Below are positions 43,325 through 48,861 of a stretch of 64,000 nt of DNA, in pieces. Each line of letters opens with the position of its first letter. The first letter of the stretch is position 1. A program made the translations under genes and the position numbers. The notes beneath the pieces were generated by a model that saw nothing but the letters and a program-made list of their open reading frames with translations, was not told the origin of the DNA and searched no databases. This DNA is from Candidatus Heimdallarchaeum aukensis (GTDB lineage: Archaea > Asgardarchaeota > Heimdallarchaeia > Heimdallarchaeales > Heimdallarchaeaceae): the NCBI GenBank assembly GCA_021513695.1, contig CP084166.1, forward strand, positions 1,888,001-1,952,000. The letters are read 5' to 3'.

Positions 43325-44152
43325 ATGTTTCATATTAGGGTTACAAGGTTTAATATTTTTAAACAAAGGTTTTTTATACCTAAACAAATATTAATTATTA
43401 GAACATCTTATATTTTAAGCGTGCACACAATGGATTTTGAAGATTCAATTGAAATATGTATGAAAGTAGATAACATTAATTCAGAAATAGATGTTAATAT
43501 ATCAGAAGAAGAAAAAGATAGGATATATTTAGAGGTAATTCAATGGTTGAATGACAATCCAATTCGTTCGTTAAGTTCTGTAAGCGATTTTATGCAACTC
43601 TTGGAAAGTTTATTATGCTTGGAGATTAAAGAAGATGGAAGACTTATATTAAGTACTTCTGCTTACAGTGATCAACAGTTAAGTGAAGGACTTAAGAGAA
43701 ATAAGGATTTCTTTAATAATTTAATTAAGGAATTTCAAAATAATATTGATAAAGAAATAAATAGAGAGTATGAAAACGAAACAGAAGAGGTTCTATTATT
43801 ACGTTTTCTTAATACAGAAGAACAGATTATTGAGGGAATAAATGAAGTATCAAAAGCATTGACAAAATTCTCTTTCAACAGAAAAAGACGTAGATTTACA
43901 AGAATATTAATTGAAGCATTATTTGAATTTTTAGATAGTATTATTCTAATATTCATAAGATGGATTGAAATAAGTGCTAATAGAAACACAAAGAGAGAAA
44001 ATTTGTCTTTAGAATTATTAGAATGGGATATAAACACGTTTAAATCGACCATCTATAATATAAATAGAATTGCACAATTATCTCAAACAAGTATCGAAGA
44101 AGAAGGAAATAAAAATTTAGCAAAGGTCTTTATAGAAATTTTACAACAGTAG
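43325..44152 (+). CDS. Hypothetical alpha-helical protein (island gene 1)
   Basis: ORF only. The likely true start is the internal MDFEDS (~43430). Acidic and helical, with no recognisable motif. It is 11 nt upstream of the next ORF on the same strand. Confidence 0.4.
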   Translation: MFHIRVTRFNIFKQRFFIPKQILIIRTSYILSVHTMDFEDSIEICMKVDNINSEIDVNISEEEKDRIYLEVIQWLNDNPIRSLSSVSDFMQLLESLLCLEIKEDGRLILSTSAYSDQQLSEGLKRNKDFFNNLIKEFQNNIDKEINREYENETEEVLLLRFLNTEEQIIEGINEVSKALTKFSFNRKRRRFTRILIEALFEFLDSIILIFIRWIEISANRNTKRENLSLELLEWDINTFKSTIYNINRIAQLSQTSIEEEGNKNLAKVFIEILQQ

Positions 44153-44162
44153 GAGGTTTTTC

Positions 44163-45345: not shown

Positions 45346-48300
45346 ATGCCTAATAAGAAAAGAATCTTCGTATTTTTTATTATTCTGTTAGTACTTTCTT
45401 TCCTTGTTGGAGCACTACCTGCTTTAGTTTCAGAAGGAATCTTTCATTTAAATAGTACGTTAGTTATCATTCTTGCATTATTAAGCCCAATACTAAGCCC
45501 CTTTATTGAGCTTATTTACAGTAATATTGCAAATATAGTTAAAAAGGCCAACTATAACAGAAAAAGAATCGTTTCAATCTTAGAAGAAAATTATCGCAAT
45601 TTTATTCAACATTTAATTATTCCTTCTGCGAGAGGAAACACAGTTAATGAACTTTTACCTCTCCATTCAATAGAACGAAGAATTATGAGCGTTGAAGATT
45701 TGGAAAAATATGTCGAAAGGGGTGAGAAGAACGTTGATTCTTTTCCTTTTACACAAATTGTAGAAGAATTAAAAGGTTCACCTCCAAGATCACTCTCTTC
45801 TAGCCCCCTAAAATATATTATTACGGGAATCTTGAGAAAAAGAAAAAAAATAAAGAACGAGGGAAAAAGACTTCTCAAATATATTATTACAGGAATTCCC
45901 GGAGTAGGGAAGACTAGTTGTTCTTTTCAACTTGCCCTAAAACAGTTAGAAGCTTTCAATAACAAAGAATCAAATTATCTTCCTCTTTGGTTTGATATAG
46001 GTGAAAGAACTGGAAGAAAACAGCTAGGAAATGGTTTGAAATCATTACGTGATATACTTAAGGATTGTAGTACTCAGGTGTCAAAAGAAGAACAACTTAA
46101 AACCTATCTTGCTTTTCTTGAAGGTAAATCTGTTGATAATGTAGAATTACGTCTTTCTGATGATGATTTTGAAATCTTCTGGATTCTCGATGGATGGAAT
46201 GAAAACCCCATAAATGATATGATTACTTGGTTAAGCAATAGAGATACCATAACTATCTTTTCTAGAATGGGAGGAGAACCTTTAGGCTCATCTTCAATTT
46301 CTTTTGATAAATATACTCTTAGACCTTTTACTGTTCAAGATTCCATCTCTTTTCTAACTCAGTTTAATCATGTCCCTGAAAAATGTGCACGTATTATCGC
46401 TAGTTCACTAGATGAACATTATGGTGAAGAATTTCTTATTCCTTTCTTTCTAAATATTATAGTTTATAACTTATCAATACAAGGGATCAATGATACGGTT
46501 CAAACAATAAATTACTTCAACATCGAGCAGACTACTAAATTTAGTTTTTTAAAAGATTTTTTCTACTCTATACTCGAACGTGATTTTTCAAGTATAAATG
46601 CTCAACGTAAACTTAATGATCGACTAAAAAGACAAATTCTCTCTTGGTTCTCTCAAATTCTCTATTTTATAGTGAAAAAAAACTCTAATGTCCCTTCAAG
46701 GATGATTTTCAGAGAGGAAGATTTGCAAGACGCAATAGATAACGTACGTCCTCCAGAAATTGTGAGAACTGATCCTTTAGAAGTATTGACTGATTTATTA
46801 TTTATAGAAAAAGTACAAGATAACAGAGGGGAACGGACTATTTCTTATAGTTTAGTCCATGAACTATATTTAGACTTTTTTCTAGCTTATGCTATTAGTT
46901 CCTTTTGGGAAAAAAAAGAGAATGAGCCTAAATTTGATAACGATGGTCGAATGTATCTTCAGTGGATGGATAATGAATCTTTCGATGAAGTATGGTTTCT
47001 TATTGCTGATAAATGGAAAGATAGCAAAGAGAATAATTTTGAGAAATTTATTATAAAATGTCTTGAATTTAGAAGAGACAAGAAAGACAATCAAGATCTT
47101 ACACTACAACACATTTTAGACTATATTAGAAATAGAGTACTTTCCTATTCTTTTTTACATCCTAATAAACGAAGTATCTCTTCTCATCATAACATATGTT
47201 TATCTTTAAGACTTTTTCCTGGTGGAATTAAAGAATTAGATTTGAGTGAAACAAAAGTTACAGACATTAGTGCTCTTGTGCACTGCACAAATCTACGATA
47301 CTTAGATTTAAGTGGAACAAAAGTTACAGACATTAGTGCTCTTGTGCACTGCACAAATCTACAATACTTAGATTTAAGTGGAACAGACGTTCAAGACATT
47401 AGTCCTCTTTCGCACTGTCCGAATCTACAAAAAATATATTTAAGTGGAACAGATGTTCAAGACATTCGTCCTCTTTCAAGTTGTCCAAATCTACAAGTGC
47501 TGTATTTACTTGGAACACACGTTCAAGACATTAGTCCTCTTTCAAGTTGTCCAAATCTACAAGTGCTGTATTTACTTGGAACACACGTTCAAGACATTCG
47601 TCCTCTTTCAAGTTGTCCAAATCTACAAGTGCTGTATTTACTTGGAACACACGTTCAAGACATTCGTCCTCTTTCAAGTTGTCCAAATTTACAGAGATTA
47701 CGTTTAAGTGGAACAAAAGTTACAGACATTAGTGTTCTTAAAAACTGTCCGAATCTACAAGAATTAGATTTAAGCGATACAGACGTTCAAGACATTAGTC
47801 CTCTTTCAAGTTGTCTAAATCTACAAGAACTGTACTTACTTGCAACACACGTTCAAGACATTAATCCTCTTTCGCACTGTCCGAAACTACAAGTATTAGA
47901 TTTAAGGGGTACACACGTTCAAGACATTAATCCTCTTTCGCACTGTCCGAAACTACAAGTATTAGATTTACATGGAACAAAAGTTACAGACATTAGTGTT
48001 CTTAAAAACTGTCCGAATCTACAAGAATTAGATTTAAGTGGAACAAAAGTTACAGACATTAATCCTCTTTCAAGTTGTCTAAATCTACAAGCACTGTATT
48101 TAAGTGATACAGACGTTACAGACCTTAATCCTCTTTCAAGTTGTCTAAATCTACAAGCACTGTATTTAAGTGATACAGACGTTACAGACCTTAATCCTCT
48201 TTCAAGTTGTCTAAATCTACAAGCACTGTATTTAAGTGATACAGACGTTACAGACCTTAATCCTCTTTCGCACTGTCCGAAACTACAAGTATTAGATTTA

Positions 48301-48861
48301 CATGGAACAAAAGTTACAGACCTTAATCCTCTTTCAAGTTGTCCGAAACTACAAGTATTAGATTTACATGGAACAGACGTTCAAGACATTAGTCCTCTTG
48401 TAAGCTTACCCCATCTACAATACTTAGTTTTACGTGGAACAGACGTTCAAGACCTTAATCCTCTTTCGCACTGTCCGAAACTACAAGTATTAGATTTACA
48501 TGGAACAGACGTTCAAGACATTAGTCCTCTTGTAAGCTTGCCCCATCTACAATACTTAGATTTAAGTGGAACAGACGTTCACGATATTAGTGCTCTTTCA
48601 AGTTGTCCAAATTTACAGAGATTACGTTTAAGTGAAACAAAAGTTACAGACATTAGTGTTCTTGAAAACTGTCCAAATCTACAAGAATTAGTTTTACGTG
48701 GAATAGAAGGTGAATTTAATATTTCTCCTATCATTCGGCATAGACAATTATTAAATCTTGATTTTGATTCTTCACTACAGTTGCTTTGTCCTCGAGACCT
48801 TCAGGATAGTATTGAAGCTCCTGCTCTTCTCAAGATAAAAGATCAAATACAATTTTTCTAA
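45346..48861 (+). CDS. Membrane-anchored STAND NTPase (NACHT-like) with C-terminal leucine-rich repeats (NLR-like protein)
   Basis: Two N-terminal TM helices. Walker A ITGIPGVGKTS. Walker B-like IFWILDGWNE (hhhhDGxDE of NACHT). A helical/winged-helix region, then ~22 internalin-like 22-residue LRRs (CPNLQxLxLxGTxVxDIxPLSS). Confidence 0.85.
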   Translation: MPNKKRIFVFFIILLVLSFLVGALPALVSEGIFHLNSTLVIILALLSPILSPFIELIYSNIANIVKKANYNRKRIVSILEENYRNFIQHLIIPSARGNTVNELLPLHSIERRIMSVEDLEKYVERGEKNVDSFPFTQIVEELKGSPPRSLSSSPLKYIITGILRKRKKIKNEGKRLLKYIITGIPGVGKTSCSFQLALKQLEAFNNKESNYLPLWFDIGERTGRKQLGNGLKSLRDILKDCSTQVSKEEQLKTYLAFLEGKSVDNVELRLSDDDFEIFWILDGWNENPINDMITWLSNRDTITIFSRMGGEPLGSSSISFDKYTLRPFTVQDSISFLTQFNHVPEKCARIIASSLDEHYGEEFLIPFFLNIIVYNLSIQGINDTVQTINYFNIEQTTKFSFLKDFFYSILERDFSSINAQRKLNDRLKRQILSWFSQILYFIVKKNSNVPSRMIFREEDLQDAIDNVRPPEIVRTDPLEVLTDLLFIEKVQDNRGERTISYSLVHELYLDFFLAYAISSFWEKKENEPKFDNDGRMYLQWMDNESFDEVWFLIADKWKDSKENNFEKFIIKCLEFRRDKKDNQDLTLQHILDYIRNRVLSYSFLHPNKRSISSHHNICLSLRLFPGGIKELDLSETKVTDISALVHCTNLRYLDLSGTKVTDISALVHCTNLQYLDLSGTDVQDISPLSHCPNLQKIYLSGTDVQDIRPLSSCPNLQVLYLLGTHVQDISPLSSCPNLQVLYLLGTHVQDIRPLSSCPNLQVLYLLGTHVQDIRPLSSCPNLQRLRLSGTKVTDISVLKNCPNLQELDLSDTDVQDISPLSSCLNLQELYLLATHVQDINPLSHCPKLQVLDLRGTHVQDINPLSHCPKLQVLDLHGTKVTDISVLKNCPNLQELDLSGTKVTDINPLSSCLNLQALYLSDTDVTDLNPLSSCLNLQALYLSDTDVTDLNPLSSCLNLQALYLSDTDVTDLNPLSHCPKLQVLDLHGTKVTDLNPLSSCPKLQVLDLHGTDVQDISPLVSLPHLQYLVLRGTDVQDLNPLSHCPKLQVLDLHGTDVQDISPLVSLPHLQYLDLSGTDVHDISALSSCPNLQRLRLSETKVTDISVLENCPNLQELVLRGIEGEFNISPIIRHRQLLNLDFDSSLQLLCPRDLQDSIEAPALLKIKDQIQFF
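47218..48706 (+). repeat. Tandem 66-bp coding repeats (LRR units), several copies identical or near-identical at DNA level
   Basis: The unit gtgctgtatttacttggaacacacgttcaagacattcgtcctctttcaagttgtccaaatctacaa occurs three times in a row at 47497-47694. The unit ...caagttgtctaaatctacaagcactgtatttaagtgatacagacgttacagaccttaatcctctttc occurs three times at ~48070-48270. Confidence 0.85.

Follow-up and report, generated by a model that had tools for sequence, protein, structure and literature searches.

A candidate membrane-anchored, NACHT-type NLR-like NTPase carried by the HeimM2 mobile element of Candidatus Heimdallarchaeum aukensis

We suggest that the largest gene of HeimM2, an 8-kb CRISPR-targeted mobile element lying between the 16S rRNA gene and a tRNA-Arg(TCT) gene of Candidatus Heimdallarchaeum aukensis (Wu et al., 2022, PMC8813620), codes for a NACHT-type, NLR-like STAND NTPase that is anchored in the membrane and is a putative immune sensor, and that the two open reading frames (ORFs) preceding it, here called ORF1 and ORF2, are separate from it. 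We hold this composite reading with moderate confidence. The element was analyzed within a 64-kb stretch of contig CP084166.1, hereafter the window. In the published description the gene is labeled an "internalin-like LRR peptide" (LRR, leucine-rich repeat), and a CRISPR spacer is reported to match it (Wu et al., 2022). The word NACHT is absent from the text of that paper, and the 140-bp repeat, the gene relic and the ORF1-ORF2 module described below go unmentioned in the text searched; neither the HeimM2 name nor the protospacer was found in its supplementary tables. What is new here is therefore modest: the HeimM2 "LRR peptide" appears to be an NLR-like NTPase from an archaeal family with very few members, one that the hidden Markov model (HMM) libraries miss.

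The HeimM2 protein and its NTPase family

The gene (Table 1) has its own ribosome-binding site, a GGAG lying 10 nt 5' of the ATG. An initial annotation, made from the sequence and its reading frames, had described a large protein with two transmembrane (TM) helices, a GIPGVGKTS P-loop, an ILDGWNE motif and some 22 LRRs, and both the ORF and the sequence analysis bear this out. The two helices form an N-terminal hairpin, also found in the homolog P0013, and the charges around it (KKR before TM1, KKANYNRKR after TM2) predict that both of its ends are cytoplasmic. The positive-inside rule would hence place the NTPase and the LRRs in the cytoplasm, and the protein would not be a surface internalin.

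Between the hairpin and the repeats, the protein displays a pre-NTPase LLPLH motif (residue 103), a Walker A motif (GIPGVGKTS, residues 183-191), a Walker B motif (ILDGWNE, 280-286), a sensor-1 motif (FSRMG, 305-309), LIPFFL (364), a winged-helix motif (HELYLDFFLA, 505-514) and FDEVW (546). A word-indexed homolog search with the N-terminal 618 residues returned only the protein itself, and an exhaustive HMMER search over 1.84 billion representatives yielded eight remote relatives (E 8e-52 to 3e-11, 29-40% identity), for a family of nine proteins or clusters. Named members are assigned to Hermodarchaeota or to an unclassified archaeon, so that all are archaeal where a name exists. A scan of genome contigs recovered only the locus of P0012 (L010) and two P-loop-only matches in Nanobdellati, a metagenome scan added nothing beyond short contigs, and IMG/VR viral contigs contained no match.

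The motifs are retained across this family. Walker A follows G[IL]PG[VI]GK[TK][SA], with GxxxxGK[ST] kept in eight of the nine members and GKKS in P0013, while Walker B follows hhD[GS]W[ND][EK] in all nine and reads D-G-W-N-E in the window protein. An arginine follows the hydrophobic sensor-1 strand throughout (IFSRMG in the window protein, F[ST]R[PLM] in 9/9), and the winged-helix histidine motif H[ES]LxxD[FY][FL]LA occurs in all eight full-length members; [LV][IV]PF[FYL]L, FDEVW and an N-terminal LLPIH are likewise family-wide. The initial annotation had raised the possibility of a degenerate pseudo-NTPase, and the preservation of Walker B and sensor-1 in the nine aligned members indicates that the module is not degenerate. 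A model of the module, based on five sequences, is of medium confidence; the predicted fold comes nearest to animal NACHT NLRs, and other STAND or AAA+ clades lie further from it than NACHT does. The winged-helix histidine lies in this model behind a beta-hairpin (E412-430, then H432-450), and we infer, without superposition, that it is the equivalent of NLRC4 H443. From the motifs and the model, we conclude that the protein carries a divergent NACHT-type STAND NTPase whose catalytic residues appear intact.

The repeat array opens at residue 628, with the consensus LQxLxLxxTxVxD[IL]xPLxxCxN; Pfam LRR_4 matches the protein with E 1.4e-102, and Tandem Repeats Finder (TRF) reports a period of 66 nt in the underlying DNA, with 22.3 copies and 81% matches. 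Variability peaks at positions 3, 5, 7, 8, 10 and 12, the x positions of LxxLxLxxTxV, where entropy reaches 1.2-2.3 bits versus 0-0.5 at scaffold positions. Several neighboring units are identical, and such near-identical tandem units imply recent turnover of the repeat.

The relatives carry different N-termini (TIR, DUF4062, 2TM) on a constant NTPase core, and their C-terminal modules vary too, between LRRs and a Roc GTPase (Table 1); the swapping of effector-like N-termini in this manner is a hallmark of conflict-related STAND proteins. Their surroundings are also informative. In a Hermodarchaeota metagenome-assembled genome (L009, 6170-12273), a 1192-aa PglX/type IIG methyltransferase-restriction gene (PADLOC E 3e-194) lies directly 5' of the gene for P0011, the TIR-bearing member; a PtuA/LmuB-like ATPase is encoded near P0013, and a MazE gene lies near P0014.

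Several observations on individual loci may be added. The region preceding the P-loop in the window protein contains an internal duplication (window 45808-45918, residues 155-191, LKYIITGI...LKYIITGIPGVGKTS), which amounts to a 24-residue insertion absent from every homolog; its second copy retains an intact Walker A. A metagenome contig of the same locus (L001, JGI 3300033149, 7274 bp) is 99.4% identical to window 42419-49696, with 38 mismatches and five gaps, and has the NLR-like gene broken into 962 and 217 aa; these differences reflect either strain variation or an assembly error in the LRR array. Another contig (L018, 8001-20806) bears a run of NLR-family and LRR genes (1601 aa, 743 aa, a 365-aa LRR gene and one of more than 1600 aa), the 743-aa gene holding a second NTPase-family match at 15388-15834, and this run looks like a local paralog cluster.

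The ORF1-ORF2 module

The initial annotation had placed two co-oriented helical proteins of no recognizable motif upstream of the large gene, separated by gaps of 11-80 bp, and had proposed that they are its dedicated partners in a three-gene system. The description of the two proteins holds. ORF1 and ORF2 are identical to K9W45_08660 and K9W45_08665 of Ca. Heimdallarchaeum aukensis; the start of ORF1 is most likely at 43430, as judged from homologs and the NCBI call, the 275-aa ORF from 43325 being only the longest reading. Neither protein matches a family in Pfam, NCBIfam, PADLOC, PHROGs or PDB, searches with each aligned member against Pfam at E<=10 and with PDB profiles gave no consistent match, and nothing was found in IMG/VR viral contigs or GenBank phages. 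The AlphaFold2 model of ORF2 (pLDDT 42) is too poor to judge its fold. The six homologs of ORF1 share 45-51% identity and 60 invariant columns, and the five of ORF2 share the motifs RNTYDKIHxYSC and YYDPTD.

As to spacing, ORF1 and ORF2 are indeed close (10 bp), but 397 bp separate ORF2 from the NLR-like gene, and this gap holds a relic of an NLR-family gene that had been overlooked. We also considered whether ORF1 and ORF2 might themselves be debris of a broken NLR paralog, and rejected this on the grounds that neither has BLASTP similarity to the NLR-like protein; only the 91-aa ORF in the gap is a relic.

Within the available contigs, the pair behaves as a unit of its own. Five lineages (the window, L002, L003-6, L007/13/14/15 and L016/17) have ORF1 and ORF2, and in each the two are neighbors. 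In L002 the pair is followed by genes of 188, 191 and 434 aa, with no NLR within 9 kb, and in L003-6 and L007/L015 it divergently adjoins a free-standing gene of 541-549 aa with a Hint-like region, LAGLIDADG_3 and a helix-turn-helix (HTH). The Hint-like, that is intein-like, region of these genes is N- and C-terminal, with no sign of the customary terminal Cys and Asn, and the genes look like HO-like domesticated intein endonucleases. Conversely, no relative of ORF1 or ORF2 was found at any of five NLR-family loci (L008, L009, L010, L018 and L019; tblastn E<=0.1). With the pair lacking an NLR in L002 and five NLR loci lacking the pair, the trio is not a conserved unit as far as these data go. 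L002 is the only contig long enough to show the pair without an NLR, and this small sample tempers the separation of the two. The related loci contain no tRNA genes, and hence there is no sign that ORF1-ORF2 islands occupy tRNA or rRNA sites elsewhere. We take ORF1-ORF2, on sequence grounds, to be an independently conserved module of Heimdallarchaeum-like low-GC genomes and not a dedicated partner of the NLR-like protein. Its neighbors are often LAGLIDADG/HTH endonuclease or toxin-antitoxin-like genes, and our best guess for its role is an accessory or backbone module of such islands.

Two other explanations of the pair deserve comment. In one, the three genes form a single system in which ORF1 and ORF2 are dedicated regulators, chaperones or effectors, co-transcribed with the NLR-like gene. 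All three lie close together on the same strand of one 6.65-kb repeat-bounded segment, no other function is known for either ORF, and small partner genes sometimes accompany defense NLRs. We nevertheless regard this as distinctly unlikely, given the conservation of the pair beside unrelated genes in L002, the absence of its relatives from the NLR-family loci, and the 397-bp spacer with its pseudogene relic before a gene that has its own ribosome-binding site. The other explanation makes ORF1-ORF2 a stabilizer of the island, of toxin-antitoxin-like or HEPN-type RNase character; we consider it rather unlikely. The 10-bp gap indicates tight coupling, the pair is kept in five lineages, and the 188-aa protein encoded after it in L002 matches the C-terminal (antitoxin) region of DarG and PDC-M19A. 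The R-N-x5-H of ORF2 (RNTYDKIH), invariant in five sequences, could be an instance of the Rx4-6H motif of HEPN proteins, although ORF2 has no HMM match and the model is too poor for the fold to be judged.

Proposed function and its alternatives

The course of activation that we infer is modeled on NLRC4, the ZAR1 resistosome, bNACHT and Avs proteins. With no ligand bound, the cytoplasmic LRR array would hold the NTPase inactive. Binding of a protein from an invading virus or a rival element would lift this block; nucleotide exchange would then drive NTP-dependent oligomerization of the NACHT module; and oligomerization would cluster the N-terminal hairpins in the membrane, leading to membrane damage or growth arrest, that is, to abortive infection. 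Both the host and HeimM2 would in this way be shielded from competing viruses or elements such as HeimV2, a user of the same site, which the sister species carries there without the NLR-like gene (Wu et al., 2022). A defense role would draw contextual support from the mobile element that carries the gene, from its targeting by CRISPR, and from the PglX and PtuA-like genes found beside relatives.

A number of points weigh against this proposal. The Pfam NACHT model (PF05729) does not match the window protein, whose sole STAND-type match is to nSTAND3, at the level of the P-loop (E 0.013; such weak P-loop matches occur in six of the nine members), and the best PF05729 score in the family, that of P0017, is 24.8 bits against a cutoff of 26.7. 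PADLOC returns for the window protein only PDC-S41 (E 0.0033, over 45 residues on the P-loop), NCBIfam returns only generic P-loop matches (NTPase, adenylate kinase), and PDB, searched by sequence and by profile with the NTPase region, returns only adenylate kinase and RFC P-loops. The signature that sets NACHT apart from other STANDs is D[GAS]hDE (Kibby et al., 2023), and in eight of the nine members Asn takes the place of its first acidic residue, with Asp in P0013. However, human NLRC4, an accepted NACHT protein, has the same variant (VLFLLDGYNEF, hence D-G-Y-N-E), and the Asn is therefore compatible with NACHT membership, though it is not the literal signature. The NACHT call of the initial annotation does not follow from database HMMs and needed remote homologs and a fold comparison; it rests on the five-sequence model, on motifs and on the one sub-threshold HMM match. 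Since animal NLRs dominate PDB, proximity to them is uninformative on ancestry. Further, the membrane-effector step is pure analogy, and P0012, with a Roc GTPase in place of the LRRs, fits signaling as well as immunity.

Signaling is indeed the alternative that we would treat as possible, though unlikely: the protein might be a non-immune scaffold, a membrane-tethered STAND/ROCO-like switch of Asgard cell biology whose carriage on the element is incidental. LRR and small-GTPase proteins are abundant in Asgard genomes, the Roc/Ras GTPase of P0012 replaces the LRRs outright, and the window protein has no recognizable enzymatic effector domain. Yet the family is tiny and patchy (nine clusters in 1.84 billion representatives), the gene is missing at this site from the sister species, which has HeimV2 instead, and it resides on a CRISPR-targeted mobile element; its relatives bear TIR or DUF4062 N-termini and lie near PglX-type restriction-modification and PtuA-like genes, and its own near-identical LRR units point to recent turnover. 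Patchiness, element carriage, N-termini, defense neighbors and repeat turnover are together more typical of a conflict gene than of housekeeping signaling. That the protein is instead an exposed, internalin-like surface protein of the element, its P-loop region a non-functional leftover, seems to us most improbable. The 22-residue unit is of internalin length and the published label is "internalin-like" (PMC8813620), but the charges round the helices predict cytoplasmic ends, no lone signal peptide-like helix at the N-terminus runs directly into the LRRs, and a 560-residue NTPase module intervenes, with motifs kept across nine diverged relatives. A bolder version of the NLR-like reading would posit that the nine proteins define an Asgard-restricted, highly divergent NACHT lineage that escapes standard HMMs and is perhaps more closely related to eukaryotic NLRs than the bacterial NACHT clades are, with the window copy as the first membrane-inserting NLR weapon on an archaeal mobile element. 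Such a lineage would combine the animal and plant NLR plan (a TIR or membrane effector, a NACHT with NLRC4-type Walker B, and LRRs); we deem it quite improbable.

The HeimM2 island and known systems

In the published mobilome, entry FWV0003 reproduces verbatim the ORF1 and ORF2 sequences, the relic and the beginning of the NLR-like gene, and continues through the LAGLIDADG gene, so the island has already been published. It is not flanked by rRNA on both sides, as had been supposed: a single 16S gene forms its left border and tRNA-Arg(TCT) its right border, and what recurs is a direct repeat of about 140 bp. This repeat opens abruptly with the final 22 nt of the 16S gene, the anti-Shine-Dalgarno region, and its copies bound a 6.65-kb segment comprising ORF1, ORF2, the relic and the NLR-like gene; the LAGLIDADG gene is inside published HeimM2 but not within the segment. 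Reverse-complemented, the spacer of the repeat also terminates the neighboring mobilome entry FWV0002. The spacer sequence behaves like a shared attachment site, and its presence in FWV0002 fits the statement that HeimV2 uses the same site (PMC8813620). An inverted, decayed copy of the 16S 3' end (about 70% identity; window 42718-42835, minus strand) lies 185 nt past the real 16S end, with which it forms a 52-nt imperfect inverted repeat, and is probably what an older integration or inversion event left at this hotspot. The 140-bp repeats, the FWV0002 spacer and the decayed copy point to repeated recombination at the site.

Other features of the window may be recorded here. No 23S gene is linked to the 16S gene within the 64 kb. 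The right-border gene (50620-50715), which ARAGORN reads as tRNA-??? with a 4-nt anticodon, and a second tRNA gene at 23036-23148, detected by Rfam only, are both longer than usual; their length suggests introns. An 803-aa orphan ORF with no family match (50716-53127, minus strand) has its stop codon abutting the 3' end of tRNA-Arg(TCT).

Table 1. Features of the HeimM2 locus (window coordinates), members of the NTPase family, and intein-like genes beside ORF1-ORF2 on other contigs.
Feature	Position	Strand	Description	Evidence
16S rRNA gene	41054-42531		single; left border	
Direct repeat (~140 bp), left copy	42511..42649	+	last 22 nt of 16S plus spacer	
ORF1	43430..44152	+	240 aa; orphan helical protein, first gene of two-gene module	six homologs
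ORF2	44163..44948	+	261 aa; orphan helical protein, second gene of module	five homologs
Relic NLR-family fragment	45009..45200	+	matches NLR residues 548-605	76% DNA, 42-44% protein identity
91-codon ORF containing relic	45026-45301	+	in the ORF2-NLR gap	
2TM-NACHT-LRR gene (candidate)	45346..48861	+	1171 aa	uninterrupted ORF, homologs, fold matches
N-terminal membrane hairpin	45364..45519	+	TM1 residues 7-28, TM2 residues 39-58	Kyte-Doolittle scan, sequence
NACHT-type NTPase module (candidate)	45652..47200	+	pre-NTPase, Walker A, Walker B, sensor-1 and winged-helix motifs	motifs, remote homologs, fold comparison
LRR array	47227..48744	+	22 regular 22-residue units plus 1-2 degenerate	Pfam, TRF, sequence
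Direct repeat (~140 bp), right copy	49160..49294	+		
LAGLIDADG homing-endonuclease-like gene	49497..50117	+	206 aa	Pfam LAGLIDADG_3, E 8.6e-13
tRNA-Arg(TCT) with intron (suggested)	50620..50715	+	right border of HeimM2	
P0011			TIR-NTPase-LRR; Hermodarchaeota	
P0012 (L010)			X-NTPase-Roc/Ras GTPase; GTPase in place of LRRs	
P0013			2TM-NTPase-LRR, like the window protein; same metagenome	
P0014			DUF4062-NTPase; partial	
P0015-18			~400-aa N-terminal domain, then NTPase-LRR	
Hint-like/LAGLIDADG_3/HTH genes (541-549 aa)	L003 403-2052; L015 413-2038; L007 1-1287	minus		

If our interpretation is correct, the main cargo of HeimM2, which is the same DNA as the published element with its LRR gene and LAGLIDADG endonuclease gene (PMC8813620), should be re-annotated from an "internalin-like" repeat peptide to an NLR-like NTPase tethered to the membrane and facing the cytoplasm. 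The analysis would also expose a small archaeal NACHT family missed by Pfam, NCBIfam and PADLOC, including a Hermodarchaeota TIR-NACHT-LRR protein, supply a compact candidate with which archaeal immunity of the NLR type could be put to the test, and remove a false lead, ORF1-ORF2 being best studied as a module of its own.

The window protein resembles animal NACHT NLRs (NLRC4/NAIP, NOD2, NLRP3) in its central NBD-HD1-WHD-HD2 module followed by a C-terminal LRR array, in the NLRC4 variant of Walker B (D-G-aromatic-N-E), the sensor-1 Arg and the winged-helix His, and in that these proteins provide its best fold matches. It differs from them in that identity in the structural alignments is a mere 10-14%, in lacking CARD, PYD and BIR domains and having a two-helix membrane hairpin instead, and in being encoded by a mobile-element gene of an archaeal host. 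Its LRR units, at 22 residues, are of the internalin type, whereas those of animal NLRs are 28-29-residue units of the ribonuclease-inhibitor (RI) type.

Closer to hand are the bNACHT proteins, among them the LRR-bearing bNACHT16 (Kibby et al., 2023), with which the window protein shares a single-gene prokaryotic NACHT format and an effector-NACHT-sensor layout. The domains fused to bNACHT include LRR, TM and TIR modules, NACHT-LRR, TM-NACHT and TIR-NACHT proteins being known in bacteria (Kibby et al., 2023), and bNACHT genes are often on or near defense islands. Unlike them, the window protein escapes the PADLOC models, its family is archaeal only where named, and its anti-viral role is putative. 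The Hermodarchaeota member P0011, for its part, has the same TIR-NTPase-LRR order as plant TIR-NB-LRR receptors and is comparable to prokaryotic TIR-STAND proteins. The initial annotation's view that such systems had not been characterized in archaea is outdated, for the island is the published HeimM2 and NLR is listed among Asgard defense systems, with a hint of ancestry shared with eukaryotic NACHT proteins (Leao et al., 2024, PMC11291487). The HeimM2 protein and its relatives would thus contribute data to the question of where the architecture of eukaryotic NLRs originated.

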